This document shows positions 752 to 14,077 of a stretch of 14,077 bases of DNA, piece after piece. Origin of the DNA: a virus. Each line of letters starts with the position of its first letter. Within the stretch, counting starts at the first letter, position 1. The position numbers and the translations under genes are program-made. Where the stretch lies: the IMG/VR virus record IMGVR_UViG_3300037264_007252, one strand, 5' to 3'. The notes under the pieces were generated by a model, which had not been told where the DNA came from, did no database searches, and saw only the letters and a program-made list of their open reading frames with translations.

Positions 752-946
752 GTGAAGCTCGGCGAGAACATCCGGTTCGAGGTCGTCAAGGTACGAGCGC
801 GGCTAAGCTGTTCGACGTGCCAGGTCACTGAAGTGATCCCACCCTCGATCAGTGGTCGGGCGCTTATCGCCCAAACCAAGAAGTTTGCGCGTGCACACCA
901 GCACTGGCGATCGCGCTGGTCGAAGGGAGCTGATCATGCGACGTAA
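752..946 (+). CDS. Small hypothetical protein (GTG start), contains CSTC
   Basis: GTG start preceded by GGAGAC. Its end overlaps the next gene by 11 nt. Short, and composition is only moderately convincing. Confidence 0.35.
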   Translation: MKLGENIRFEVVKVRARLSCSTCQVTEVIPPSISGRALIAQTKKFARAHQHWRSRWSKGADHAT

Positions 947-1313
947 GCGTCCGCTCCCCGCGCGTCCACGTTTCACGGTTCGCATCGTCCTCGGCGGTAT
1001 CGAAGGCGTGGGCCCGAAGCGGCACTACGCTGCGCTCGCCGAGTTCTACGTCGACAACGGCCAGACGTACGACCAGGAACTTTCCGTCCCGGCCGCGTTC
1101 GTGGCCTACCGTGTCACCATGCAGTGCGTAGAAAACCGGCCCGGCCCGCCCAACGCCGAGCGTGCGTTCGCCAAGATGGTCATCGACGCGATCCCGCACG
1201 ACGTCTGGGACGCAGGCATCGCAGCGATCGCCGCCCGTGACCCGCACGGCCAACGTACCGCGCAGGAGATCATCGAGCGCTGGCGCCAGGGAGAATACGA
1301 TGCAGCTCGTTAG
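936..1313 (+). CDS. Hypothetical protein
   Basis: ATG at 936 with a GAAGGGAG Shine-Dalgarno. High third-position GC. Its stop overlaps the next gene's start. Confidence 0.5.
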   Translation: MRRKRPLPARPRFTVRIVLGGIEGVGPKRHYAALAEFYVDNGQTYDQELSVPAAFVAYRVTMQCVENRPGPPNAERAFAKMVIDAIPHDVWDAGIAAIAARDPHGQRTAQEIIERWRQGEYDAAR

Positions 1314-2028
1314 CGCTACGCAGCCGGACTGGACAGAACGCCGACAGGCAATCGCGAACTGGATCCAGTTCGTCGGCGACTTCGGTCAGATCGATGTAGA
1401 CGCGCTCCTGCCCTGCATCGAGGACAACGCGTTCGTCGAAGCCGTCGAGGCTGTTCTCAAGGCTGCGGGACGACCCTGGGCCTCGTTCGAGCACGTCCGC
1501 GACTTCTGCGTGCAGCGCCTCTACGGCGAGAAGTCGATAGCCCATACAGGGCCACCCCGGCCTCGGCACCGGGTCACGCCGTTCTCGGTGCCGATGGAGT
1601 TGCTTCGTAGCGTATTCACGTTCAAGGACCACAGAGGGCGCGACCAAAGTGAGTTCGTCCCTGGACGGCTCCGCATCCGCGAGGAGAGCTTCGTCCTTGA
1701 TGTCCCGATGAACGGTGAAGCCGATCATCGCTTCCTGGTAACGCAGGACCAGATGCTTCTCCTCACGACCGTATGGGCACGCGTCGTCCCGCCGATCGAA
1801 CCGCTCCGGCACCGTGTCGAGATCATCGATGAAGGCGCCAACCGTCGTCAGGACATGCTGCTGTGGGCGCTCGTGACCGAGCCGCAGCCGTTGTTCCTGC
1901 CGCTCTCACCCAACACCTCTGTGAACGTCAGGGTTCGACCGGGCTGGGCACCGCAATCGAACGAGAACACGCCGCCCATACACGTGCTCATGTCCTTTGA
2001 AGGCTGGTCGTATCTAGGAGGCTGGTGA
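1300..2028 (+). CDS. Hypothetical protein (243 aa)
   Basis: Internal ATG at 1300 of ORF 1162..2028, with a GGGAGAA Shine-Dalgarno. The stretch upstream of 1300 in this frame is Arg/Ser-rich junk that overlaps the previous gene. The stop overlaps the GTG/ATG of the next gene. Confidence 0.55.
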   Translation: MQLVSATQPDWTERRQAIANWIQFVGDFGQIDVDALLPCIEDNAFVEAVEAVLKAAGRPWASFEHVRDFCVQRLYGEKSIAHTGPPRPRHRVTPFSVPMELLRSVFTFKDHRGRDQSEFVPGRLRIREESFVLDVPMNGEADHRFLVTQDQMLLLTTVWARVVPPIEPLRHRVEIIDEGANRRQDMLLWALVTEPQPLFLPLSPNTSVNVRVRPGWAPQSNENTPPIHVLMSFEGWSYLGGW

Positions 2029-2660
2029 TGACGCTGCAACATGAACTGGAACAAGCACAAGCCGAGGTCGCACGCTACCGCGAGCGCGAAGCGTACTTCG
2101 CCAAGGCGCTGGGTGTCACCGACGGCGGCCAGTACCGGGCCGACTGGCCGAGTTCGATCGAACGGGTTCTGCGGGACTGCAAAGCCAAGGACGAGGCGCT
2201 GACGAAGGCCGCCGATACGTTTCGGGACTTCCATGCAGCTATGACGCTGCTCGGGCACGATCTATCGGCCAGCGCGGCAGCGATTGCTGAGGAAGCCACA
2301 CGCAAAGCGATCGGCCCCGACCGCCCGGCCCCGTGTCCGATCCCAATGATCCTTCACTGCCCCGAGTGCAAGACGCAGCACGTGGACGAGGGGATCTGGG
2401 CGACGACACGCTTGCACAAGTCGCATCTGTGCGCGGCCTGTAACCACACGTGGCGGGTCGCTGACGTTCCCACCGTCGGTGTAGCAACGTTGCCGAGCGT
2501 TGCCCGTGATCGCTGCTGCGATCGTTGCGAGGAACCCAACATCATGGACGCCCCCGACGGGCCCGTCTGTCACTGCGGAAAGCCGTCGGCGTTCGAGTCC
2601 GGCGTGTGCACCGACTGTGGGAACTGGGACCTGGCACGCTGGCAACGCGAAGGCGCATGA
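2025..2660 (+). CDS. Hypothetical protein with an N-terminal coiled-coil and a C-terminal multi-CxxC (double zinc-ribbon-like) region
   Basis: AGGAGG Shine-Dalgarno at about 2015. Start is GTG 2025 or ATG 2028. The N-terminus 'LQHELEQAQAEVARYREREAYFAKAL' is heptad-like. The C-terminus carries CPEC...CAAC and CCDRC...CHCG...CTDCG clusters. Confidence 0.55.
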   Translation: MMTLQHELEQAQAEVARYREREAYFAKALGVTDGGQYRADWPSSIERVLRDCKAKDEALTKAADTFRDFHAAMTLLGHDLSASAAAIAEEATRKAIGPDRPAPCPIPMILHCPECKTQHVDEGIWATTRLHKSHLCAACNHTWRVADVPTVGVATLPSVARDRCCDRCEEPNIMDAPDGPVCHCGKPSAFESGVCTDCGNWDLARWQREGA

Positions 2661-3214
2661 TGACGCCCATGAACTCGATCGACGACGTCAAGGCACTCCT
2701 CGAACGTCTGCCAGAAGACCAGCGTAAGGCGTGCCTGAACTTCCTCAGCAAGAACGGCGAGCGCATGCTTCGCGCGCCTGGCTCGACGCATAACCACCAG
2801 GCGTGGAAGGGTGGCTACCTCGACCACGTCGCCGAGGTGATGAAGCTAGCCATCGCCTTCTACGACGCGTTTGTGGTGCTGGGACGTCCACTGCCCTTCA
2901 CACCGGCGGACGCGTTGGTCGTCCTGTTCCTGCACGATGCTGAGAAGCCGTGGCGCATCATCGAACACGAGGGTGGTTACGCGCACGGGTTCCCGAAGGA
3001 TCAGGCCGACGTGTTCCGTGAGCGGCTACTGCAAGAATACGGCATCTGGGGCACGCTGACGGCGGCCCAGAGGGACGCGCTTCTCTACGTCGAAGGTGAG
3101 AAGGACCGCTACACCCCGGACCAGCGCAACATGAGCGAGCTGGCAGCGTTCTGTCACCTGTGTGACGTCACGTCGGCGCGCATCTTCCATGACTATCCGA
3201 GGCGAAACAGATGA
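2657..3214 (+). CDS. HD-domain metal-dependent phosphohydrolase-like protein
   Basis: ATG 2657 forms an ATGA overlap with the upstream stop. The motifs 'STHNHQAWKGGYLDHV' and 'LVVLFLHDAEKP' match the H..H / HD pattern of the HD superfamily. Confidence 0.5.
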   Translation: MMTPMNSIDDVKALLERLPEDQRKACLNFLSKNGERMLRAPGSTHNHQAWKGGYLDHVAEVMKLAIAFYDAFVVLGRPLPFTPADALVVLFLHDAEKPWRIIEHEGGYAHGFPKDQADVFRERLLQEYGIWGTLTAAQRDALLYVEGEKDRYTPDQRNMSELAAFCHLCDVTSARIFHDYPRRNR

Positions 3215-3235
3215 TCAACCGCCGAAACTAGAACC

Positions 3236-3505
3236 TTGTCCATCCCCGTCGCGCTCGTCTGTCTCGCGGTCGCACTTGTCGGTGCCGTTGTGCTTGTACG
3301 CAACGCACGCAGGCAACGTGACAAGGTGTTCCGCGCGCAGGATGTGAATACCGAGGACGTGCAGCGCCAAGACGAGATGATCTGCGCCGAGTGCACCCAG
3401 TCGATCGATGCCGCGATCGACCTCTACATTGGCGACACAAGTCGTGGCACGTGGTGGCACCGCAAATGTTATAAGCGCGCAACGTTTAGGAGCAGGAGAC
3501 CGTGA
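3236..3505 (+). CDS. Small membrane-anchored zinc-finger protein (N-terminal TM helix, CAEC...HRKC)
   Basis: TTG start with no clear Shine-Dalgarno, so the start is uncertain. Third-position GC is very high throughout. A hydrophobic helix 'IPVALVCLAVALVGAVVLV' is followed by a CxxC...HxxC motif. Confidence 0.4.
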   Translation: MSIPVALVCLAVALVGAVVLVRNARRQRDKVFRAQDVNTEDVQRQDEMICAECTQSIDAAIDLYIGDTSRGTWWHRKCYKRATFRSRRP

Positions 3506-3696
3506 GCGAGAACAAGAACGGGAACGAGCGCAGGGAAGCCGTTCAGGTCTTCATGTGCGGCGGCGATCGGTGTCCGAAAGACGGACAGCCGCATCAATGG
3601 GATGGGCCAACGCAGACGACAGAACTGTCCGAGTCGTCGACGTGCTCGAAGTGCAGCCTCGCCCACATCGACTGGTGTTTGATGAACGCGCCGTAG
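3502..3696 (+). CDS. Small zinc-ribbon protein (CGGDRC ... CSKCS)
   Basis: GTG 3502 forms a GTGA overlap with the upstream stop, with AGGAGCAGGAG upstream. Two Cys pairs. Confidence 0.45.
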   Translation: MSENKNGNERREAVQVFMCGGDRCPKDGQPHQWDGPTQTTELSESSTCSKCSLAHIDWCLMNAP

Positions 3697-3744
3697 GTGC
3701 GTCCAGAGCAACGAAACGAAAGAGCAGAGGAAAGGGGATACGAC

Positions 3745-6378
3745 ATGAGCGAACCACAGAGGATGGAGAAGCGCGATCTGGTGCTGGCACCTGGCACCTA
3801 CGCGTACATGCAGGACGTGACCAAGGGCGTGGTCAAGACGTACACCGGCCCGACGGTGATCAACCCGACGGCTCAGGAAGTCCCGGTCGTCTACGACCCG
3901 GACGAGCGAACGTTCAAGCGCGCGGACAGCCTGGAGGCGGCGCTGTGCACGGCGGTGGTGGCCGACGAGGGCTTCTACATCGTGCTCAAGAACCCGGCCA
4001 AGCAGAACAAGCATCCCGATGACGGGGCAACGAGCATGAGCGCCGACCTCGACGTCGGCCGCGCAATCATCATCCCCGGTCCGGCCGTGTTCGCCCTTTG
4101 GCCGATGCAGGCCGCCGAGGTCGTCCAGGGCCATCATCTGCGCTCGAACCAGTACCTGCTGGTTCGCGTCTACAACGAGGACGAAGCCCGGGCGAACTGG
4201 AAGAAGGCGGTCGTCAAGCCCGCTGAGGCAACCGCCGTCGGGGTCACGCCGCCCGAGAAGCCAGTCGTGACTGCACCGCCGCCTGCCGATCTCACCGTCG
4301 GCAAGCTGATCATCATCCGAGGCACGGAAGTCTCGTTCTACATCCCACCGACCGGCGTCGAGGTCGTGGCGGACAGTGCAAACACGTACGTGCGCGACGC
4401 GCTCACGCTGGAGCGTCTGGAGTACTGCATCCTCGTCGATGAGAACGGCAAGAAGCGCTACGAGCGCGGTCCGCAGGTCGTGTTCCCGATCCCGTCCGAG
4501 CGCTTCATCGAGCGCGAAGCCAAGGGGCACGCTCGGCGCAAGTTCTCGGCCATCGAGCTGAACGAGATCCAGGGCCTGCACATCAAGGTGATCGCTGACT
4601 ACAAGGACGAGCGCAGCGGCAAGGATCACAAGGCGGGCGACGAACTGTTCATCACCGGGAAGGACGAGGCGATCTACTTCCCCCGCGAGGAACACTCGCT
4701 CATCAGCTACGACGGCCGATCCAAGCACTTCGCCACGGCCGTCCCGGCGGGCGAGGCACGCTACGTGATGAACCGGGTCACCGGTGAAATCCGTACGGAG
4801 CGCGGCCCCAAGATGCTGCTCCCGGACCCAAGGATGGAGGTGATCGTCCGCCGCGTCCTGTCAGACAAGCAGGGCACGCTCTGGTACCCAGGCAACCCGG
4901 AGGTGCTCGCCTACAACCAGTGGCTGCGTGACGTTCTCTCGAAGGCCCCGACCACGCGCTCGGGTGCGGTCTCCGAAGGCGACTTCGAGCGCAACGCGAA
5001 GGTGGCAACGCAGCAGGCACAGCGAGGTGGTGGTGCCGCGCCCGTCGCAGCGGTCATGGCAATGTCGAACCAGGGCTACGCTGCGATGGAGAAGAGCCTG
5101 GTGTCGGCCGACCAGGCTGCGATGATGGGTGACGAGTTCACTCGGGGCTCGAACTACACCCAACCGCGCTCGATCACGCTCCAGACCAAGTACGAGGGCG
5201 CGCCTGCGATCCAGGCGTGGACCGGCTACGCGGTCATGATCGTGTCGAAGACCGGCAACCGCCGGGTCGAGATCGGGCCGAAGAACGTGCTCATGGAGTA
5301 CGACGAGGCACTGGAAGTCCTGGAGCTGTCAACGGGCAAGCCGAAGACGACCGACAACCTGCTCAAGACCGTCTACCTGCGCGTCCTCAACAACAAGATC
5401 GGCGACATCGTCACTGACATCGAGACGAGTGACCACATTCGACTCAACATCAAGCTCTCGCTGCGGGTCAACTTCGAGGGCGAGCCGTCGAAGTGGTTCG
5501 AGGTCGAGAACTACGTCAAGTACCTCACCGACCACGTACGTTCGGTGCTCAAAGGCACGGTCAAGAAGCAGAACATCGAGCAGTTCTACGCGGGCGCGGT
5601 CGACATCATCCGCGACACCATCCTCGGCAAGCAGGTGGAGAAGAACGAGCGGCCGGGCATGACGTTCAAGGAGAACGGCATGCGCGTCACCGACGTCGAG
5701 GTGCTGGAGGTGAAGATCACCGACCAGACCGTCGCCGGGCTGCTGGCTCAAGCGCAGCACAACGTCGTCAAGGGCAACATCGAGCTGGCCCAGGCAGCAC
5801 GGGACCTCGACGTGGCCCGTCAGCAGGAGGAGTTCACGCGGCAAAAAGCCGACTTCAAGGCCGTGACGCTGAAGCGCGTACTGGGGCTGGAAGTCGACGA
5901 GATCGTCGAGAAGCAGAAGGTCGCGGAGACGCGGATCCGGACGCAGCGGGAGGAGCAGTCCCAGCTCAAGGAGCTGGAGGTCGAGAAGCAGGCCGTGATC
6001 GATACAGCGTTCGCGGCGAAGCTGAAGCGCGAGAAGGATGAGGCCGATCAGAAGCAACAGATCAACGCCGCGCTCCAACAGCTCACGATCGAGCTGACCA
6101 AGGCCGACGCAGACGCGGTGGTTCAGCGCTTTGCAGCAGCTCAGCCGGGCTTCGCTGAAGCGCTTCGCGCGCTCCAGAACGACGACGTGTTCGTCAAGGT
6201 CGCACAGGCATGGAGCATCCAGCGCGTGATCGGCGGCGAGAACGTATCCGACGCCCTCAAGCGCGTGTTCGAGGGCACGCCGGTCGGTACCATCGTCGGC
6301 AAGCTGCTCGGCAGCAACGGCAACGGGCAACACGAAGGGGTGAAGCCGACGCCGTCGGCGCCCGCCACCCGGCCGTAG
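3745..6378 (+). CDS. mvp: Major vault protein (MVP) homolog, full length (877 aa): MVP repeat domains + SPFH-like shoulder + coiled-coil cap-helix
   Basis: ATG 3745 is preceded by a strong purine-rich Shine-Dalgarno (GAGGAAAGGGGA). The listed ORF begins at GTG 3697, immediately after the upstream stop. Segments match mammalian MVP as recalled from memory. 'DLVLAPGTYAYMQDVTKGVVKTYTGPTV' resembles the MVP N-terminus '[29 protein letters not shown]'. 'AGDELFITGKDEAIYFP' and 'ARYVMNRVTGEIRTERGPKMLLPDPRMEV' resemble 'AGDHWLIRGPLEYVP' and '[29 protein letters not shown]'. 'RRVEIGPKNVLMEYDEALEVLELSTGKPK...IVTDIETSDHIRLNIKLSLRVNFE' resembles the shoulder '[29 protein letters not shown]...[23 protein letters not shown]'. 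About 150 residues of E/Q/K/A-rich coiled coil sit where the cap-helix lies. Total length is close to human MVP (893 aa). Confidence 0.8.
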   Translation: MSEPQRMEKRDLVLAPGTYAYMQDVTKGVVKTYTGPTVINPTAQEVPVVYDPDERTFKRADSLEAALCTAVVADEGFYIVLKNPAKQNKHPDDGATSMSADLDVGRAIIIPGPAVFALWPMQAAEVVQGHHLRSNQYLLVRVYNEDEARANWKKAVVKPAEATAVGVTPPEKPVVTAPPPADLTVGKLIIIRGTEVSFYIPPTGVEVVADSANTYVRDALTLERLEYCILVDENGKKRYERGPQVVFPIPSERFIEREAKGHARRKFSAIELNEIQGLHIKVIADYKDERSGKDHKAGDELFITGKDEAIYFPREEHSLISYDGRSKHFATAVPAGEARYVMNRVTGEIRTERGPKMLLPDPRMEVIVRRVLSDKQGTLWYPGNPEVLAYNQWLRDVLSKAPTTRSGAVSEGDFERNAKVATQQAQRGGGAAPVAAVMAMSNQGYAAMEKSLVSADQAAMMGDEFTRGSNYTQPRSITLQTKYEGAPAIQAWTGYAVMIVSKTGNRRVEIGPKNVLMEYDEALEVLELSTGKPKTTDNLLKTVYLRVLNNKIGDIVTDIETSDHIRLNIKLSLRVNFEGEPSKWFEVENYVKYLTDHVRSVLKGTVKKQNIEQFYAGAVDIIRDTILGKQVEKNERPGMTFKENGMRVTDVEVLEVKITDQTVAGLLAQAQHNVVKGNIELAQAARDLDVARQQEEFTRQKADFKAVTLKRVLGLEVDEIVEKQKVAETRIRTQREEQSQLKELEVEKQAVIDTAFAAKLKREKDEADQKQQINAALQQLTIELTKADADAVVQRFAAAQPGFAEALRALQNDDVFVKVAQAWSIQRVIGGENVSDALKRVFEGTPVGTIVGKLLGSNGNGQHEGVKPTPSAPATRP

Positions 6379-6659: not shown

Positions 6660-6974
6660 ATGACGATTGAGAATCAGGACCAGCAGCTCGTGTGCATCGA
6701 CTGCAAGCAGGAGTTCGTCTTCACGCAGGGGGAGCAGAAGTTCTTCGCCGAGCGGAACTTCACTCCACCGAAGCGCTGCAAGCCCTGCCGCGACGCCAAG
6801 AAGGCGGACAAGGCACAGGGAAGTGGTGGCGGTGACAACGGCGGCGATCGCGTTGCCGCTGGCAACGGTGGCGGCAACGACAACGCAGCCTTCTGGACCC
6901 GAGGCGACAACCGGGGAGGTAGCCGGGACGAGAACGAGGGGCGTGGCGGCGGGAACCGCCGTAGGCGCAGGTGA
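6660..6974 (+). CDS. Zinc-ribbon protein (CIDC-x17-CKPC) with a C-terminal Gly/Asn/Arg-rich (RGG-like) low-complexity tail; putative nucleic-acid-binding
   Basis: ATG 6660 with an AAAGGA upstream. The motif 'LVCIDCKQEFVFTQGEQKFFAERNFTPPKRCKPCRDAKK' is the conserved zinc-ribbon module I recall fused to some bacterial DEAD-box helicases and cold-shock proteins. The tail 'GSGGGDNGGDR...GNGGGNDN...RGGSRDENEGRGGGNRRRRR' is RGG/Gly-rich. Confidence 0.6.
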   Translation: MTIENQDQQLVCIDCKQEFVFTQGEQKFFAERNFTPPKRCKPCRDAKKADKAQGSGGGDNGGDRVAAGNGGGNDNAAFWTRGDNRGGSRDENEGRGGGNRRRRR

Positions 6975-7141: not shown

Positions 7142-7621
7142 ATGCAACTCTCGCAGAAGTACGTCGTCTTGATCGCGCGAGCACGGCTGGTTCAAGCTCG
7201 TCGTGATGACACGAACGGCGCCGCTCTTGCCGATGTTGTCGGCCAGCGCATCGCTTGGACTGCACTTGCGGCGAGCGCAGACGCAGGGCCAGGCGCGTTG
7301 CGTGGGCGTGCACTATGGCTCATCGGTTGGACACTCGGGCAACTCGTCGGGCAAGGTTTTGAGCCCGAGGAGATTGCCCGGCCCGAGGGCCTCGATGCGA
7401 TCGAGGCCGTTGCCGTCGTCGCAGCGATCCAGAAGCGGCGCAACATCGCACACGTGAACCAACGCCCGCGTGGGCCGACGTTTGGTGGGACCGCACCGCG
7501 TCAGCAGTTGTTCATGCCGGTGAACGCTGGTAGGCCGCTGGCCGCGACCTGGGCTGCCGTCTACAAAGCGGCGCGTACCGAGCTAGACTGCTGCTTCGAT
7601 CCAGCCGGACGCCGACAGTGA
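7142..7621 (+). CDS. Hypothetical protein
   Basis: ATG 7142. Its stop forms an ATGA overlap with the next gene. Third-position GC is moderate. The antisense alternative (6525..7313 minus) is Ala/Arg-rich junk. Confidence 0.4.
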   Translation: MQLSQKYVVLIARARLVQARRDDTNGAALADVVGQRIAWTALAASADAGPGALRGRALWLIGWTLGQLVGQGFEPEEIARPEGLDAIEAVAVVAAIQKRRNIAHVNQRPRGPTFGGTAPRQQLFMPVNAGRPLAATWAAVYKAARTELDCCFDPAGRRQ

Positions 7622-8409
7622 TGGACGAGACTCGCGCAGCACAAGTCGCAGACGCGATCGCCTGGTTGGAACTAACCGGGCGTGTCACGCACGTGCCCGT
7701 CACACGTCTCACCCGGCGGCTGCGTGAAGGCGACGAAGCTCTCATCGACGCCATGTTGGCGCTACTCACCATCCCAGGGCGTCCCGGTGAACGTCTGGAG
7801 GTCTTACGCGATTTCCTGATCACGCAAGAGTTGGGCGAGCCCGAGGAATTACGTAGCAGCAGCGACTGGACCTCGTCGCCGTCACCGTTCAACGTCCCCG
7901 AGTGGGCACTACTCCCCTGGCTCGGGAAGGACATCAAGCGGCTACGCATCCGCCAGTTCTACGACTGTCTGCTCGTCGGTGGCGACGGCCGGTTGCCGGG
8001 GACGACAGGGGCAACGGTGCCGATGCGGGCAGCAGGACAGTGGCGGCTGTTCGGTAACACGCACATCGGTGAGCCGCTGATGACGAACCTGCAAGTCGCC
8101 GGGCAGTTTTGCTTCGATACGATGTTCGTCGCGACGGCCTGGTGGCTGGTGACGCTCAACTCTTGGGCGAGCGCCGAGGCATTCTTCGCGCGCAGCCACG
8201 TCTCGTTCGAGGTCGGTGATCGGCCCGAAGCTGTCGTGCAGGCCCTGCCACTATTTCGCGCACACCAACCGATCTTCGTGCCGGTCCCGCACCGTCAGAA
8301 CGTCGCCGTGGTGCTCAACTTCCATGGCGATCTGCCATTGCCGAGCGCCGGACCGTCGATCCCGGTGTACGTCTACGTTGAGGGCTGGGCAGCCAAGGAC
8401 GTGCGGTGA
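7618..8409 (+). CDS. Hypothetical protein (263 aa)
   Basis: ATGA overlap start. Protein-like composition with several Trp/Phe-rich stretches. No family recognised. Confidence 0.5.
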   Translation: MMDETRAAQVADAIAWLELTGRVTHVPVTRLTRRLREGDEALIDAMLALLTIPGRPGERLEVLRDFLITQELGEPEELRSSSDWTSSPSPFNVPEWALLPWLGKDIKRLRIRQFYDCLLVGGDGRLPGTTGATVPMRAAGQWRLFGNTHIGEPLMTNLQVAGQFCFDTMFVATAWWLVTLNSWASAEAFFARSHVSFEVGDRPEAVVQALPLFRAHQPIFVPVPHRQNVAVVLNFHGDLPLPSAGPSIPVYVYVEGWAAKDVR

Positions 8410-8414
8410 CCGTC

Positions 8415-8840
8415 TCACCACCGTCTGCGGCGGGAGCGTGGCGCGTCATCTTCCTTCTGACGCCGTGCCTCCTCGTAAGCCTCGTTGCGCCGACGGTCTG
8501 CCTCGCTCTGCCAACCCTTCCCACGACAAGCGAAGCACATGGAGATCACACCCTCCTCGGCTTCGTGGGTACGTCCACGTGGCGCGATGCCGGTTCCACC
8601 GCACTTGTTGCACACCCAAAATGGTGCGTCTTCGCGCATGAGCCCAACAATGACGTGCGCGGCGTTGAACCAATTTTCGGGCACAAGCTCTACTGGCTCA
8701 CGGTAGTCTTCGTGATCCGGTCCACGATAAAGCTTGCGTGCAATTTTCTCGGCTTCAGTGTCAAATTTTTGTGACGGCAACCCAGACTGCGCACGCAGGA
8801 TTGCATAACGACGGCGTATCTCGTCGATGGAGCGGCTCAC
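8415..8840 (-). CDS. Hypothetical zinc-ribbon protein (CNKCGGTG...CFACRGKG) with a basic C-terminus; locally lower GC
   Basis: GTG start at 8840 with GCCAGGACG upstream. Protein-like composition. It converges on gene 7618..8409 with only a 5-bp gap. Confidence 0.5.
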   Translation of the reverse strand: MSRSIDEIRRRYAILRAQSGLPSQKFDTEAEKIARKLYRGPDHEDYREPVELVPENWFNAAHVIVGLMREDAPFWVCNKCGGTGIAPRGRTHEAEEGVISMCFACRGKGWQSEADRRRNEAYEEARRQKEDDAPRSRRRRW

Positions 8841-9181: not shown

Positions 9182-9673
9182 TCATACGAAGCTCTTGCGG
9201 TAGAGCTTCTCGGCGCTTCGACAGTCACCGGTGAAGGCTTGCTGGACGGCAAGATGCAGCCGCCGCTCAGAGGTCATGTCACACGCCGCGCTCTTCTTGC
9301 ACGACCGGAGCTTCATAGCGATCTTGTCGTAGTTCCCGCACCTGGGTGCATGCTGGGCCGCCCGCTCGGTCATGCGTTCCCACGGCTCAGCCTCGACCTC
9401 GTCCCAGTCATCTTCATAGTCGCCAACACGACCAGAGTTTTTCGTCGCGATACGCTTGGCGGCGCGTCCAGTGCTGACGGCCAAGAACACGCCCAGGGCG
9501 ATAAGGCCGAGAGTGATCGTTGTACCGACGACCCACATCGCGACAAGCGATTCGGCCGACGGTATGCCCTCGGCGCCAAGACCGAACATCTGATTCGGAC
9601 CGCTTTCGCCGAACCCGGGCGAAGCGGTCTCGGTGCCGTGCCCGTCCATCGTCGTGTGGGTAATCGCGAGCAC
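9182..9673 (-). CDS. Small membrane protein, paralog A (N-terminus MLAITHTT-MDGHGTETASP, GFG/GLG motifs, one TM helix)
   Basis: GTG start sits inside a 56-nt block nearly identical to the 5' end of the next gene. TM helix 'LVAMWVVGTTITLGLIALGVFLAV'. Good third-position GC. Confidence 0.55.
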   Translation of the reverse strand: MLAITHTTMDGHGTETASPGFGESGPNQMFGLGAEGIPSAESLVAMWVVGTTITLGLIALGVFLAVSTGRAAKRIATKNSGRVGDYEDDWDEVEAEPWERMTERAAQHAPRCGNYDKIAMKLRSCKKSAACDMTSERRLHLAVQQAFTGDCRSAEKLYRKSFV

Positions 9674-9680
9674 GGGTTAC
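9625..9680 (-). repeat. Copy 1 of a duplicated 5' gene segment (56 nt)
   Basis: 'cggtctcggtgccgtgcccgtccatcg' plus 'tcgtgtgggtaatcgcgagcacgggttac' recurs at 10201..10227 and 10270..10298. The two blocks have 2 and 0 mismatches respectively. In copy 2 they are separated by a 42-nt in-frame insertion. Confidence 0.7.
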
Positions 9681-10291
9681 GCTTTCTTCGGCTTGCCGAA
9701 CCCTTGAGCGACAGCAATCACCGGTGTGATCACAGGAAACAGCGACCCCAGGACGAACCACCCGATCGCCCAACCTACGCTCTGGTTTCGCTTGTAGCCG
9801 TGGTACGCGGATGCCGCGCCAGACACCGTCGACAGAACGCTCCAGATGATGACTGCCGTACTACGCGTCCGTTTCGTACGTGCGGCACGCTCCAGCGCAT
9901 CCGCAACGAGGCTTGCATCACCGCCCTCGGCGATGATCGCCGCCGCGAGCTTCTTGCGCGTGCCAGCGTCGAACTGTGCCAAGAGCTTGGCGAGGTCGAA
10001 CGCGTTGACATGGTCGAACGCACCAAACTTTGTGCGCGGCGCAATTCGCGCTGCTGTCTCCTGAATCTGCTCATCCGTCAACGCCGCGCCGAGGCCCATG
10101 ATGTCCGGCTTGCCGAACCCGGGCACGTTCCACGGCACCTTCTGTACGGAGCCGCCCCCGCCCCGGACGAAGACCGTTTCGTGAGGCGTGACGGGTGAGA
10201 CGGTCTCCGTGCCGAGCCCGTCCATCGGCGTGAGGAACTCCTTCGGCGGCAGCCTGAAAACTTCGTCGGTCGTGTGGGTAATCGCGAGCAC
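9677..10291 (-). CDS. Small membrane protein, paralog B (N-terminus MLAITHTT + 14-aa insertion + MDGLGTETVSP; C-terminal double TM; GFGKP motif twice)
   Basis: Its stop TAA is followed by CCC and then the GTG start of paralog A. Its 5' region duplicates that of A. C-terminal hydrophobic segments 'AVIIWSVLSTVSGAASAY' and 'VGWAIGWFVLGSLFPVITPVIAVA'. Confidence 0.55.
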   Translation of the reverse strand: MLAITHTTDEVFRLPPKEFLTPMDGLGTETVSPVTPHETVFVRGGGGSVQKVPWNVPGFGKPDIMGLGAALTDEQIQETAARIAPRTKFGAFDHVNAFDLAKLLAQFDAGTRKKLAAAIIAEGGDASLVADALERAARTKRTRSTAVIIWSVLSTVSGAASAYHGYKRNQSVGWAIGWFVLGSLFPVITPVIAVAQGFGKPKKA

Positions 10292-10298
10292 GGGTTAC
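10201..10298 (-). repeat. Copy 2 of the duplicated 5' gene segment (27 nt + 42-nt insert + 29 nt)
   Basis: Direct comparison of the two loci on the plus strand. The matches include the stop codon, the CCC spacer and the start codon of adjacent genes. Confidence 0.7.
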
Positions 10299-10582
10299 AC
10301 TTTCCGGCCGCGTACGACGTAGCCCAAGGCGAAGCCGGACACGGCCCCGAACAGGCCGGTGATGATGACCAGGGTCGCGGTCAGGCTCTTCGAGAAGCCG
10401 GTGTCGGCGGCTTCCTGGCCGAGGCCGTGTATCGGGTAGCCCTGTTCGATCGCGTGCGTGCCGAGGCCGTGACCGTAGACGAGCACGGGCCCGTTTTCGG
10501 CCGCACGCGCAAAGCCCGCGCTGTTGGCCGTGTAGCCGTTGGCGCGGCTGGCGCCGTTCTTCACTCTGGTCGCCGTCAGCAT
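10295..10582 (-). CDS. Small membrane protein C (HGLGTHAIEQGYPIHGLG motifs, C-terminal TM helix), first gene of the minus-strand trio
   Basis: ATG start next to the divergent promoter region. Its stop is followed by CCC and then the GTG of paralog B. TM helix 'LTATLVIITGLFGAVSGFALGYVV'. Confidence 0.5.
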   Translation of the reverse strand: MLTATRVKNGASRANGYTANSAGFARAAENGPVLVYGHGLGTHAIEQGYPIHGLGQEAADTGFSKSLTATLVIITGLFGAVSGFALGYVVRGRKV

Positions 10583-10636
10583 GGACCTACTCTATCACAC
10601 CCACGATCGCTCGCGCGATCGAGTAGAATCGCCTCT
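10583..10636. promoter_or_regulatory. Divergent promoter/operator region. Each side has a TAnnnT -10-like hexamer 6-9 nt before its start codon (TAGAAT for the plus gene, TAGAGT for the minus gene), suggesting leaderless mRNAs. They flank a CGATCGC-N4-GCGATCG palindrome.
   Basis: Sequence is 'CTACTCtatcacacccaCGATCGCtcgcGCGATCGAGTAGAATcgcctctATG'. GAGTAG is present in inverted orientation on both sides. Neither start has a Shine-Dalgarno. Confidence 0.35.
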
Positions 10637-11266
10637 ATGGCCGCCCAGTTCGAGCGCAGCGTTGAGCGCTGGCGCAAGCCCCTGGAGAAGCTCGCCGACT
10701 GGGTGCCGCTCGACTTCCTGCTCGCCTGGGTCGACAAGGAATCCAACGGCCTCCCACATGTCGTCTCATCCATCGGTGAGCGCGGCCTGTTCCAGGTCCA
10801 CAAAGACGAAGTCCCGTACCTCAAGCTCTCGGAGGCCGAGTTCCAGAAGCTGACCAAGGACACGGCGCTGGCACTCAAGACCGGCGTCAAGCAGGCCAAG
10901 CTCTACGCAAACTTCTCGAAGAAGTTCCTGGCCGAGGTCAGGGTCGAGTGGCACGGCCAGGACTTCTGGAAACTGGTCAAGCTCCACCACGCTGCCTTCG
11001 CCATGCCCCGGTATACGCTGCTCGCGTTCAAGCGCGAACATGGGCGTGGTCCGGCGAGTTGGGACGAGCTGTACAAGTTCGCTACGAAGATGGCTGCGGA
11101 GAAGAAAGACCTGATCCCCGACAAGCCGAAGTTTTCGGCCCGGCTGCGGGGACTGACCGCGAAGACGTTCAAGAACGCCGACACGGTCGGCAGCGTCGTG
11201 CCTGCAATCGCTGCTACGGACTTGCCCGCGCTGAGAACCTTCTTCCGTCTTCTAGCGGTGGCGTAG
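10637..11266 (+). CDS. Lytic transglycosylase (SLT / lysozyme-like) domain protein, no signal peptide (endolysin-like or virion-associated)
   Basis: 'DKESNGLPHVVSSIGERGLFQV' fits the SLT family signature E-S-x(7-9)-S-x-x-G-A-x-G-L-M-Q, with the catalytic Glu in 'ES'. The part of listed ORF 10274..11266 upstream of 10637 is antisense to genes B and C and was rejected. Confidence 0.5.
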   Translation: MAAQFERSVERWRKPLEKLADWVPLDFLLAWVDKESNGLPHVVSSIGERGLFQVHKDEVPYLKLSEAEFQKLTKDTALALKTGVKQAKLYANFSKKFLAEVRVEWHGQDFWKLVKLHHAAFAMPRYTLLAFKREHGRGPASWDELYKFATKMAAEKKDLIPDKPKFSARLRGLTAKTFKNADTVGSVVPAIAATDLPALRTFFRLLAVA

Positions 11267-11292
11267 CCCGGTCATCGAGATCACCGAGATCC

Positions 11293-11298
11293 GATAGA
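11293..11298 (+). promoter_or_regulatory. TAGAAT -10-like hexamer 19 nt upstream of ATG 11318 (AGGAGA Shine-Dalgarno in between). The same 'GATnnnTAGAATC' context occurs upstream of the 10637 gene.
   Basis: 'gatccgaTAGAATCcgaaacAGGAGAaaccATG' compared with 'gatcgagTAGAATCgcctctATG'. Confidence 0.25.
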
Positions 11299-11317
11299 AT
11301 CCGAAACAGGAGAAACC

Positions 11318-11521
11318 ATGCCCCGCTTCAACGTCATGCTCACGATCACCGCGCCGGTGTCCACCTCGATCGAAGTCAATGCGCCGAACGCACGTACGGC
11401 CGCTGCGAAGGCCGTACAGCACGTGTTGGAGAGTCCCGACTACCGGATCCTCGACTTCGACGGCAACTCGATCGACATCCTCAAGGACGACGTCACCGTC
11501 GACGAGGTCGAACCCGCGTGA
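11318..11521 (+). CDS. Small acidic hypothetical protein (67 aa)
   Basis: ATG with a strong AGGAGA Shine-Dalgarno. High third-position GC. Its stop forms a GTGA overlap with the next gene. Confidence 0.5.
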   Translation: MPRFNVMLTITAPVSTSIEVNAPNARTAAAKAVQHVLESPDYRILDFDGNSIDILKDDVTVDEVEPA

Positions 11522-11895
11522 GCCGCGCGACCGCGATCCTGCGTGCCGTCCGGTCATGCTTGACCGACGAGCTGCGGCTACCGAAGTATCGCGGGCACCC
11601 GAACCCGCTGCGCGGGCACTGCTCCGTCGCGAGCGAGGCCGTCTACTTCCTGCTCGGCGGCAAGCACAGCGGCTGGACGCCGACGACGTTGCGTGTCGGC
11701 GACGAGGTCCACTGGTTCCTCCGACAGCATGACAGTGGTGAGATCATCGACCCGACCGCTGGGCAGTTTGCTTGCGAGCTGGACTACGGAGAAGGGCGCG
11801 GTCGGGGTTTCCCGACGCCCCGAGGTGGCGCGAAGCAGCCACCACCGTCGAAGCGCGCTGCGAAAGTCATCGCCTGCGCACGGAGGAAGCTGTGA
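11518..11895 (+). CDS. Hypothetical protein (125 aa)
   Basis: GTG 11518 forms a GTGA overlap. The part of listed ORF 10948..11895 upstream of 11518 overlaps two other genes and is Arg-rich junk. Confidence 0.45.
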   Translation: MSRATAILRAVRSCLTDELRLPKYRGHPNPLRGHCSVASEAVYFLLGGKHSGWTPTTLRVGDEVHWFLRQHDSGEIIDPTAGQFACELDYGEGRGRGFPTPRGGAKQPPPSKRAAKVIACARRKL

Positions 11896-11908
11896 AAGGA
11901 GACCGTCG

Positions 11909-12082
11909 ATGACACGCCCTCTGCTCCTCGACAAGGACACCGTTCTGGATGACCTCGACGAAGTGCTGGGCTACCTCCGACAGCTTCGCCGCGATATCGT
12001 TGCGTCCCGAGAGCTGCCCCAACACGTCTTGCGAACTGCTGTCGAAGAGGGTGTGCGGCTTCTGGAGCACGTAGGCCGGTGA
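11909..12082 (+). CDS. Small hypothetical protein (57 aa)
   Basis: ATG 11909 with an AAAGGAG Shine-Dalgarno 8 nt upstream. High third-position GC. Confidence 0.45.
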   Translation: MTRPLLLDKDTVLDDLDEVLGYLRQLRRDIVASRELPQHVLRTAVEEGVRLLEHVGR

Positions 12083-12636
12083 CTCCAAACCGCACAAAGC
12101 CACTTGGCCTCGCCGTACCCGCGTGGTGGCGTCGTCCATCACCACGTCCGTCCGAGCACGCCATGTGCTACCGGCGCAAGGCCGACGCGCTCAACGTCTT
12201 CAAGGACTACAACCATCACGTGACTGAGAACTGGGGCGGCCTCTTGCAGCCGGACTCGACAGGCGCGACGTTCGACGCGATCAACGAGCGGTACGGACTA
12301 CGCGGCAAGAAGAAGGTCAAGTCCTTCGCCGAGGCGTACTGGGTTGCGATGCCACCGAACCCGCCCTACTGCCTGGACCGGATCGACATCAAGACGCTGA
12401 ACGAACTCCCGCCCGCGCAGGAGCACGGCGGCTTTCGTCTCCCCGACTACGTCTACGATGAGATCGCGAAACGTGAAGAGGCGCGATACTACCGCGAGCA
12501 GCTCTCACGGCGCGTGAAGCGTGAGCTTCGACGCGGACTGCATGACGCGGCAGGCTCGCGTGTCGTCGACGTCGCGCTTGTTGCAATGGGCCTCGGCGGC
12601 CTCGCGCTTGCCGTCTGGGCTGCACGAAGGAAGTAA
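12079..12636 (+). CDS. Hypothetical protein with a C-terminal TM anchor (VVDVALVAMGLGGLALAVWAA)
   Basis: GTG 12079 forms a GTGA overlap. Protein-like composition. The start is uncertain; alternative in-frame Met codons lie downstream. Confidence 0.45.
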   Translation: MTPNRTKPLGLAVPAWWRRPSPRPSEHAMCYRRKADALNVFKDYNHHVTENWGGLLQPDSTGATFDAINERYGLRGKKKVKSFAEAYWVAMPPNPPYCLDRIDIKTLNELPPAQEHGGFRLPDYVYDEIAKREEARYYREQLSRRVKRELRRGLHDAAGSRVVDVALVAMGLGGLALAVWAARRK

Positions 12637-12688
12637 GAACGCAGCGGTGATACACTCGATTCCACCGAACGAAAAGGAAGGTGAAGTG

Positions 12689-12943
12689 ATGACACGCAAG
12701 TCCAAGTCCAAGTCCAAGCCCTCCTACTGGGGCGTCTACGCCGACGGTAGGGCAGCGACAGGAAGCACCAACAAGAAACGAGAAGCTCAGGCGCTCGCTG
12801 CGCTGATCTCGATGCGTGGCATCGGTGTTGGCCGCAAGGTCTGCATCATGCAGCGCAGCAGCAGCGGCGACAAGCCGACGGGGGAGTGCTTCGAGAAGGG
12901 AATCCTCTACAAAGACGGCAAAGCGCGGCCGTCGCCGTTCTAG
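12689..12943 (+). CDS. Small basic hypothetical protein (84 aa; N-terminal KSKSKSK)
   Basis: ATG 12689 with an AAGGAAGGTGA Shine-Dalgarno. The upstream part of listed ORF 12521..12943 overlaps the previous gene and was rejected. Confidence 0.5.
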   Translation: MTRKSKSKSKPSYWGVYADGRAATGSTNKKREAQALAALISMRGIGVGRKVCIMQRSSSGDKPTGECFEKGILYKDGKARPSPF

Positions 12944-12958
12944 CGGCGGTGGCCTTCG

Positions 12959-13222
12959 ATGACGTCAAACAACCTCAAGGATCGCCTAGCTGACTACGAC
13001 GGCGAGGTGTTGCTAGCCGACGGCTTCGACGATGCCTTCCTCGGTCTCGGCGACCGTTGCGGCCAGCCGACAGTCGCTGTCTACGATCGTGAAGCGTGTC
13101 TCGGAGTCCTCATGCAACGCGACGGTATGTCGCACGAAGACGCCGAAGAGTTTTTCGACTTCAACGTCGCTGGTGCATGGGTCGGGGAAGGCACACCGAT
13201 CTACCTCACACGGATCCCATAG
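12959..13222 (+). CDS. Small acidic hypothetical protein (87 aa)
   Basis: ATG with a GGCGGTGG Shine-Dalgarno. High third-position GC. Confidence 0.5.
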   Translation: MTSNNLKDRLADYDGEVLLADGFDDAFLGLGDRCGQPTVAVYDREACLGVLMQRDGMSHEDAEEFFDFNVAGAWVGEGTPIYLTRIP

Positions 13223-13267
13223 TACGGCTACGTGGCTCATACGTGGCGCATCAACCGACGAGGGAAA

Positions 13268-13450
13268 ATGCGTAACAAATATCTTGTGGTAGTTGGTCCA
13301 GGGGGCACCGTGTGGTCGCAACATCGCAGCAAAAAGGCCGCTGACAAAGGGGTCGAACGATGCCTAGCGGACCACAAACGCAACGCACCCCGAGCAAAGA
13401 TCACCTGCAAGGTGATGACGTTTACGCAATACACGAAGAGGAGTCTCTGA
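13268..13450 (+). CDS. Small basic hypothetical protein (60 aa) with lower GC; alternative GTG start at 13232
   Basis: A GAGGGAAA Shine-Dalgarno lies immediately upstream of ATG 13268. Third-position GC is clearly lower than in neighbouring genes. Confidence 0.3.
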   Translation: MRNKYLVVVGPGGTVWSQHRSKKAADKGVERCLADHKRNAPRAKITCKVMTFTQYTKRSL

Positions 13451-13451
13451 C

Positions 13452-14077
13452 ATGACCCGACTCGTTCACTTCATCCTTGCTCTCAGCGCCTGCGGCGCAT
13501 TGCTGGCTTGCCCTGGCCCCAAGCCCAAGCCGCAGCCTGAGCCCCACAAGGTCATCGTCATACCCGGGACGACCGTGTTGATCGCACAGGCGGAGCCTGC
13601 CGTCGGAGCTACCGCCGCTGCGTCAGTCACCGTCTACATCAGCTTCGGTGCCGACTCGGTGATCCAAGCGGCTGACTGGGCGAGCTGGTGCACGACGACG
13701 TCGGCGCTCACCTGCAACTTCAACCTGACCGGCTCGAAGGCGTTGCCGAACCCGAACGGCGCGTACCTCAACATGACGATGAGCGTCGGCGCACCTGTCG
13801 GCTGCGGCGTGACCAAGGCCGAGCTGAACGTCAACAACCCGAACTGGTACGACACGCTCGACGTGAGTCTCGTCGACGGCTACAGCAACAACATGGAGAT
13901 CCGCTACACGCCACCGACGGGGCCGCCGGTGACAACGTTGGGGCCGCTCAACGGTCAGACTGGGAACGAAAAAGTCCTGGGCGTTTACCCCTACGGCTGC
14001 GATGTCTGCGTCGCTCGACAGAACCCACCGTGTGGGATCCCGACGGGAACTGACGGCTGCAAGGCAGGGACGCAGTA
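13452..14077 (+). CDS. 3'-truncated lipoprotein (lipobox L-S-A-C) with a thaumatin-like (TLP/GH64-like) domain motif
   Basis: ATG 13452 with an AAGAGGAG Shine-Dalgarno. The signal peptide 'MTRLVHFILALSAC' has a lipobox Cys14. Frame 0 is open to the window edge and the gene is absent from the track because there is no stop inside the window. 'AELNVNNPNWYDTLDVSLVDGYSNNMEI' closely resembles the conserved thaumatin-family core '...LNQ...DF.DISLVDGFN.PM.F'. Confidence 0.5.
   Translation, partial: MTRLVHFILALSACGALLACPGPKPKPQPEPHKVIVIPGTTVLIAQAEPAVGATAAASVTVYISFGADSVIQAADWASWCTTTSALTCNFNLTGSKALPNPNGAYLNMTMSVGAPVGCGVTKAELNVNNPNWYDTLDVSLVDGYSNNMEIRYTPPTGPPVTTLGPLNGQTGNEKVLGVYPYGCDVCVARQNPPCGIPTGTDGCKAGTQ

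Follow-up and report, generated by a model that had tools for sequence, protein, structure and literature searches.

A high-GC metagenomic contig that links a major vault protein gene to a lytic transglycosylase gene is probably part of an uncultivated large phage genome

The vault is a eukaryotic organelle of still unknown function, and homologues of its shell component, the major vault protein (MVP), are still treated in the literature as rare in prokaryotes and, where viruses are concerned, as two isolated cases. These are the gut phages ctOa11 and ct2Ri15, tailed-phage metagenome assemblies in which a 2023 preprint announced the "first viral MVPs"; their MVPs are closest to those of bacteria and no TEP1 or vPARP partner was found for them (10.1101/2023.11.10.566534). 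Predicted vault proteins were reported for the Borgs in 2025 (PMC12660748), and according to a 2026 paper prokaryotic homologues are known "in only a few Bacteria". Here we describe IMG/VR record IMGVR_UViG_3300037264_007252, a complete metagenomic contig of 14,077 bp from the Joint Genome Institute (JGI), referred to below as the window. It encodes an MVP homologue (g08) and, some 4 kb downstream of it, a lytic transglycosylase of the SLT type (g16). The latter lies in the interval under study (9182-13450), together with three small membrane proteins and a series of mostly unrecognisable genes; 12 genes are wholly or partly inside that interval.

The gut phages are set apart from the window by their description: human gut, Firmicutes-type hosts and different genomes. 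A nearer comparison is offered by the huge phages LR756500, LR756501/LR756503 and LR745206 (462-735 kb), which we take to be those of Al-Shayeb et al. 2020. Like the window, they have dense and mostly unannotatable genes, and they encode homologues of its MVP, of its g18 (LR756501) or of its g05 (LR745206). There is, however, no synteny between them and the window, their GC contents and gene neighbourhoods differ from it, and the RNA ligase, HD-AAA_33 and Macro-domain genes of LR756500 do not occur in it.

The window's vault gene is a full-length one. Its product aligns end to end with more than 150 homologues and matches the Pfam families MVP_shoulder (1.8e-27, 96 bits) and Vault_3 (3.8e-9, 37 bits) above threshold, with one Vault repeat below it. 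The protein is 43% identical, over 91-97% of its length, to the MVPs of three GenBank huge-phage genomes (LR756500, LR756501 and LR756503). In IMG/VR, a profile scan detected MVP homologues on 234 contigs; among the best 80 of these, 43 have lengths of 100 kb or more and 17 of 200 kb or more, the GC content ranges from 25 to 67% and the best identity is 56%. An exhaustive HMMER search gave 1,204 MVP clusters (50% identity, E<=0.001), with no member more than 59% identical to g08. The breadth of MVP among large phages seems to be under-reported. A preliminary description of this locus, made from the letters alone, had held that a virus-encoded MVP would be without known precedent; given the 2023 gut phages, the three huge phages and the 234 IMG/VR contigs, any "first virus-encoded MVP" claim should be dropped. 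The locus is best annotated as probable phage DNA.

In our view the window is a fragment of an uncultivated large phage genome that carries an MVP gene, a reading to which we give a probability of about 0.72. The source would be a double-stranded DNA phage with a genome of probably at least 100 kb, and the contig would come from a non-structural accessory region of it. As the window is the whole contig and has no flanks, the evidence can come only from its gene content and from its relatives. The only other assembly found is a Logan contig of 8,808 bp (run SRR11849544) that falls entirely within the window; in this separate assembly, too, MVP is joined to the SLT region. Nine of the window's proteins, with exact gene boundaries, are present in a collection of 15 billion proteins, where every exact-sequence cluster checked was a singleton at 90% identity.

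Gene calling, by a frame plot of the GC content at third codon positions (GC3) combined with a codon log-odds caller, gave 26 genes on a contig with a GC content of 0.632. They are arranged in three strand blocks (g00-g11 on the plus strand, g12-g15 on the minus strand and g16-g24 on the plus strand), at a coding density of 0.91 and with a median protein length of 126 amino acids (aa). Over the whole contig eight gene junctions overlap by 0-14 nucleotides (nt), a phage-like architecture, and many start codons are preceded by GGAG-like Shine-Dalgarno sequences. The translationally coupled operon that the preliminary description had placed upstream is thus borne out, as is its impression of mostly unrecognisable small proteins, since for nine of the 12 interval genes searches of Pfam and PHROGs at E<=0.01 gave nothing beyond sub-threshold hits. 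Scans of the contig detected no tRNA and no Rfam family, hence no vault-RNA or Y-RNA-like gene; its promoter and terminator matches were at or below the level expected by chance.

The best characterised protein of the interval is g16. Its Pfam SLT score (PF01464, 20.8 bits) is just below the gathering threshold of 21.3, and three of its 23 homologues (45-67% identity) carry a precomputed PF01464 hit. The catalytic Glu35-Ser36 pair and the GLFQ motif (G50-L51-F-Q53) are invariant across these 24 sequences. Its SLT profile had no match among PDB sequences, so that a fold search was needed. The AlphaFold2 (AF2) model is of high quality (predicted local distance difference test score, pLDDT, 93), and the best-ranking PDB folds are without exception those of lytic transglycosylases (MltE, MltF and MltC; Foldseek probability 1.0, TM-score 0.5-0.6), with phiKZ gp144 lower in the same list. 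In a viral structure library the matches were tail lysins, the PRD1 transglycosylase, LT_GEWL-domain proteins and a putative endolysin. The preliminary description had named an SLT enzyme here, and both the motifs and the fold confirm it. With E. coli MltE, the catalytic domain of P. aeruginosa MltF and phiKZ gp144, g16 has in common the fold, the catalytic Glu-Ser and a GLxQ motif, but it is only 13-20% identical to these family-1 enzymes. In contrast to them, g16 lacks a lipobox, a signal peptide and a peptidoglycan-binding domain, and its C-terminal helical extension is conserved within its own family. Neither a signal peptide nor a transmembrane (TM) or other hydrophobic segment was found in g16, and none of its homologues has a signal peptide either. 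By motif and fold, g16 is a cytoplasmic lytic transglycosylase, and it is the conserved functional element of the interval. It would cut peptidoglycan as an endolysin or else as an entry enzyme; it may serve as the former, and could equally be the latter.

It is the homologues of this enzyme that lead to the window's relatives. Five of them have long contexts, on contigs of 51-151 kb, and in all five of these small ORFans follow one another in a single direction. Set between the ORFans are genes for a UDG-DNA polymerase A fusion, AAA_24, tyrosine integrases, N6/N4 methylases and HNH proteins, and also for a reverse transcriptase and a MoxR-type ATPase together with DUF2201. A profile scan of IMG/VR added three contigs with a g16-type SLT (94,993, 221,422 and 64,848 bp). 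On one of them, IMGVR_UViG_3300019487_000032 (64.8 kb), the counterparts of g10 (1.4e-11), g11 (2e-43; both by tblastn and phmmer) and the SLT gene follow one another in the same order and on the same strand as in the window, and walking along this contig led to relatives of 195,792 and 221,422 bp. The polymerase is 63% identical between two of the related contigs (L041 and L139), which have many neighbouring genes in the same order, and the SLT of the window is about as far from those of its relatives as these are from each other. From such sequence comparisons, the SLT-bearing contigs are one coherent lineage of about 65-221 kb (IMG/VR 3300019487_000032, 3300024054_000362, 3300037483_000793 and 3300036768_000843, plus the Logan/NCBI contigs L041 and L042).

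Like the window, the members of this lineage have small-ORFan arrays and an SLT orthologue (51-67% identity), at a GC content of 55-66%. They differ from it in that their sampled regions have no MVP and no homologues of g13-g15 or g17-g24, while the window is without the MoxR/DUF2201 pair and other near-SLT genes common to the lineage. Among the larger proteins of the relatives there are strong PHROG matches: a helicase (5e-79), phrog_11532 (2e-47), an ATPase (4e-43), phrog_1314 (6e-58) and an integrase (3e-28). Read from their translations, the relatives also encode a DinG-like helicase, thymidylate kinase (Tmk), ribonucleotide reductase (RNR) and Dam; matches among PDB sequences (E 2.4e-5) lend weak support to a HerA-like ATPase. 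On the related IMG/VR contig L049 (12535-13047) there is a protein with a peptide-release-factor-like GGQ motif near its end, again as read from the translation.

In all, the SLT, g10, g11, g14, g18, g22, g05, g04 and MVP have homologues on IMG/VR or GenBank phage records. The proteins of the interval matched 71 phage records in 2.3 Gb of sequence, versus three plasmid records, weakly, in 7.3 Gb; MVP had no match in the same 7.3 Gb plasmid database. Of the mobile or viral origin suggested in the preliminary description, the viral one thus stands as the best-supported reading, by homology and gene architecture but not by hallmark genes, of which none was recovered.

Several observations weigh against a phage origin. 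No capsid, terminase, portal, tail or integrase gene was recognised by Pfam or PHROGs in 25 window proteins, and a homologue is detectable for only eight of the 26 window genes. Nor was any structural or packaging gene recognised in about 51 kb of IMGVR_UViG_3300019487_000032 (PHROG, PDB and tblastn) or in the sampled parts of the other relatives, a result that covers 20 of the larger proteins of these contigs; consequently, the viral status of the relatives depends on the IMG/VR classifier, on replication-type genes and on PHROG matches. MVP homologues of similar identity to g08 (42-52%) occur on contigs of metagenome-assembled genomes (MAGs) of Riflebacteria and other bacteria, so MVP itself is no indicator of a virus. 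Finally, the scan of genome contigs used single-sequence patterns only, and closer bacterial relatives may have escaped it. With regard to the first of these points, a 14-kb piece of a genome of at least 100 kb can easily lack the hallmark genes.

The same lack of any recognised virion or packaging gene, in the window and in some 51 kb of its closest relative, would also fit an origin of the contig from a mobile element that is not a virus (a large plasmid, for instance, or some other giant extrachromosomal element), in which case the "viral" relatives would have been misclassified. The integrases, TnpB-like gene, methylases and HerA-like ATPase of the relatives also occur on plasmids and other elements, and the Borgs, for which vault-like proteins have been reported (PMC12660748), are not established viruses. 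Yet no gene for a relaxase, for type IV secretion, for partition or for plasmid replication came to light, the matches in the plasmid database were almost nil, and the PHROG matches of the relatives are strong. Moreover, the UDG-PolA fusion, AAA_24, RNR and Tmk make up a phage-style replication set, and three of the relatives are in IMG/VR. On balance we consider a non-viral element improbable.

The bacterial MVPs raise the alternative that the contig is a stretch of a high-GC bacterial chromosome (a variable island or a decayed prophage remnant) and its MVP a host gene, as in Riflebacteria. Such homologues are found on MAG contigs of up to 558 kb, and the window's uniformly high GC3, its coherent codon usage over most genes and the lack of an integrase or att site within it would all suit a chromosome. 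However, no housekeeping or other NCBIfam-recognised gene was found among the ten window proteins tested, the ten largest ones had no PADLOC match, and the median gene encodes only 126 aa. Every homologue with a readable context sits in phage-like DNA, and a rough neighbour-joining tree, weak as it is, sets g08 outside the Riflebacteria clade and next to the huge-phage sequences. Of the readings considered here, a chromosomal origin strikes us as the least probable, and a very improbable one. A defence island, also considered, was rejected for want of any support and of PADLOC matches. As to an integrated state, none of its marks (integrase, tRNA, att sites or long direct repeats, host genes) is present within the contig, which has no flanks, and the repeat search found neither long terminal nor direct repeats. 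The term "prophage" thus has no support of its own, and on this contig a prophage is not distinguishable from a free phage.

If the contig is viral, as we believe, its MVP adds a high-GC environmental case to a phenomenon that is barely described and yet, to judge from the data, seems widespread, namely the repeated occurrence of the vault's shell protein in large phages. In the window this gene is physically linked to the g16 region, and it would be one of the widely scattered accessory genes of large phages. It is a speculative idea that large and huge phages have in MVP a recurrent accessory gene that moves horizontally, that its product makes vault-like cages in infected bacteria, perhaps with a link to RNA repair or to the handling of ADP-ribose, and that the window is one more carrier, from a high-GC lineage without an earlier description. 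Phage MVPs bear on the origin of the eukaryotic protein, and a phage-bacterium system making vault-like particles would give an easy experimental handle on the function of the cage.

The neighbourhoods of MVP are variable. No conserved neighbour was found between the window and about 120 other MVP loci from GTDB genomes, JGI metagenomes and IMG/VR, among them a further set of 80 IMG/VR loci (L059-L138). In the huge phage LR756500 (L054, 2517-14459), the genes flanking MVP encode a polymerase (phrog_23333), an RNA ligase and a protein with HD and AAA_33 domains, and a gene downstream of MVP has a weak Macro-domain match (22.4 versus 22 bits); these neighbours hint at RNA repair and ADP-ribose handling. 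On the IMG/VR contig 3300010399_000003 (L001, 5055-17580), MVP has a primase-polymerase gene on one side and a DNA polymerase gene on the other, and the next downstream gene weakly matches phrog_850, "RNA-binding protein" (E 4.7e-7). In the window itself, after a gap of 281 bp on the 3' side of MVP, there is a gene for a zinc-ribbon protein of the treble-clef type (zf_Tbcl, 1.3e-16), the tail of which is rich in Gly and Arg; the protein has a match in a small "Bacteriophage sp." record and stands beside MVP at no other locus examined.

A trio of small membrane proteins, g13-g15, adjoins g16 on the other strand. The preliminary description had counted three such proteins, rightly, since each has a clear hydrophobic segment, and had combined them with the SLT enzyme into a lysis-type module. 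The N-terminus of g13 is Gly-rich, with MDGHGTE and MFGLG motifs, and its C-terminal part is Cys-rich; the gene is called identically in the Logan assembly and has no Pfam or PHROG match. The motifs of g14 (MDGLGTE and IMGLG) and of g15 (GHGLG and IHGLG) are similar, so that all three share a Gly-rich N-terminus with DG[HL]GTE or GHGLG followed by an hGLG motif. In addition, the g15-g14 and g14-g13 junctions carry two copies of one repeat, 97% identical over 36 nt (repeat search and alignment). Given these shared motifs and the repeated junction, g13, g14 and g15 look like paralogues of one another. The identical 29-nt core, GTAACCCGTGCTCGCGATTACCCACACGA, comes after the TAA stop codons of g14 and g15 and includes the GTG start codons of g13 and g14; a recent duplication or gene conversion could be behind it, or else it could act as a re-initiation signal. 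No Pfam, PHROG or PADLOC match was found for g14. The exact sequence of g15 is present in both JGI and Logan data; its only match, a sub-threshold one to Pfam LrgB (17.2 versus 25 bits), is the probable basis of its JGI name, "putative effector of murein hydrolase".

Could the SLT gene and the three membrane genes nevertheless be a working phage lysis cassette, with g13-g15 as holin, antiholin or spanin-type partners? As in the canonical lambda S-R-Rz/Rz1 cassette, a cytoplasmic muralytic enzyme adjoins small membrane proteins, here at no more than 55 bp. The confident transglycosylase fold of g16 comes without a signal peptide or TM segment, and an enzyme with no export signal of its own needs a membrane lesion or an export route; its viral fold matches, too, include tail lysins, the PRD1 transglycosylase and a putative endolysin. 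In contrast to the lambda cassette, however, the window's genes are divergent (g13-g15 are on the opposite strand, with 54 bp between the start codons of g15 and g16), its membrane proteins resemble one another and share the 29-nt junction, which is atypical for a holin/spanin set, and a small lipoprotein of the o-spanin type is missing. Nor is the adjacency kept among the relatives: in none of the seven related contigs is there a g13-g15 homologue beside the SLT gene, and in six of the seven no TM protein is encoded by the three nearest genes on each side of it. The exception, L049, has a 54-aa protein with two TM segments after its SLT orthologue, which may be counted in favour of a cassette, but this protein is not related to g13-g15. 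The single homologue found for g14, covering its C-terminal TM domain, is on IMGVR_UViG_3300042874_000422 (L058, 18949-19236; E 1e-19), 13 kb away from the peptidoglycan-hydrolase genes of that contig. We consequently think a lysis cassette unlikely; the trio is not demonstrably a lysis module, and the label should not be carried forward.

The contig with the g14 homologue has some features of its own. NGLG motifs are repeated in several of its proteins (L058, 16020-19236), next to that homologue, and the shared hGLG/NGLG motifs could be a processing or targeting signal. Beside the homologue (19282-19974) there is also a TM protein with a transglutaminase-like motif and a weak match (24% identity, E 4e-7) to gp34 of Salisaeta icosahedral phage 1, a membrane-containing, tailless phage. 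The contig also encodes small jelly-roll-looking proteins without any match.

Table 1. Positions and main properties of the genes and repeats discussed in the text, in coordinates of the 14,077-bp window.
Feature	Position	Strand	Description
g02-g07	936-3696	+	Translationally coupled block upstream of MVP; overlaps of 14, 4, 4 and 4 nt
g05	2657-3214	+	HD-motif protein (motif read from sequence)
g08	3745-6378	+	Full-length major vault protein homologue; possible starts at 3697, 3745 or 3763
zf_Tbcl protein	6660-6974		Treble-clef zinc-ribbon protein
g10-g11 pair	7142-8409	+	Collinear with the SLT gene on IMGVR_UViG_3300019487_000032
g12	8415-8840	-	141 aa; two CxxCxGxG zinc-finger motifs; weak PHROG hits; uncertain gene call
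g13	9182-9673	-	163 aa; one TM segment (residues 48-66); from the ORF (open reading frame), GC3 (0.76) and hydropathy
Junction repeat, copy 1	9651-9686	-	g14 TAA stop, then CCC, GTG and the first g13 codons
g14	9677-10291	-	204 aa; C-terminal TM hairpin; N-terminal MDGLGTE and IMGLG motifs
Junction repeat, copy 2	10269-10304	-	g15 TAA stop and g14 start
g15	10295-10582	-	95 aa; tail-anchored, TM segment 72-90; GHGLG and IHGLG motifs
g16	10637-11266	+	209 aa; family-1 (SLT/GH23-type) lytic transglycosylase, from motif and fold
g17	11318-11521	+	67-aa ORFan; GC3 0.87; exact sequence in protein collection, singleton; no Pfam/PHROG match
g18	11518-11895	+	125 aa; phage family phrog_12251 (YunG-like); start overlaps g17 stop; gene call from the Logan contig
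g19	11909-12082	+	57-aa ORFan; no Pfam/PHROG match
g20	12163-12636	+	157 aa; tail-anchored membrane protein (TM segment 134-152); no Pfam, PHROG or PADLOC match
g21	12689-12943	+	84-aa basic ORFan; no Pfam/PHROG match
g22	12959-13222	+	87 aa; phage family phrog_13182 (2.6e-26)
g23	13268-13450	+	60-aa ORFan; no family match; lowest GC of the contig (0.536)
g24	13452-14077	+	Lipoprotein, lipobox LALSAC/G; at least 208 aa, runs off the contig end

The remainder of the interval would consist of small, fast-evolving genes, two of which fall in phage protein families (Table 1). The first of these, g18, matches its PHROG at 6.6e-17 and YunG below threshold (23.4 versus 27 bits); it is 47% identical to a protein of Myxococcus phage Mx1, with further matches in phiCbK-like Caulobacter phages and in the 735-kb huge phage LR756501. 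The second, g22, has tblastn matches in SPO1-like Bacillus phages and in the jumbo Tunturiibacter phage Tunturi_5. The low-GC "morons" of the preliminary description are weak: within the interval, g23 and g22 (0.591) are below the contig mean, and no others; g22 itself belongs to a phage family, and g23 alone is a realistic candidate for recent acquisition as a moron. Likewise, the lipoprotein mentioned there exists, as g24 is the only lipobox protein, but it starts at 13452, one base past the end of the interval; its thaumatin-like match is weak (16.3 versus 27.4 bits).

Outside the interval, g04 has a homologue in BcepF1-like phages, and g05 has one, 42% identical, in the 634-kb huge phage LR745206 (tblastn 1e-30); searched alone in IMG/VR, g05 had no match. 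The call of g12 is complicated by the Logan data, in which an ORF of 122 aa on the plus strand (8406-8840) conflicts with the 141-aa gene that we prefer on the minus strand; GC3 is low there (0.61) in either frame. For g11 only two homologues were found, both on short contigs, and its AF2 model is poor (pLDDT 60). It is also a distant paralogue of g03 (g03, 1300-2028; g11, 7621-8409; E about 1e-6), and both proteins end in (F/V)EGW. The family of g10 (7142-7621), recognisable by the motif QG(L/F)xPxDxxxxxGxDAxEA, is present in multiple copies per genome in related contigs (L049/L050, 5251-9681, and L051).

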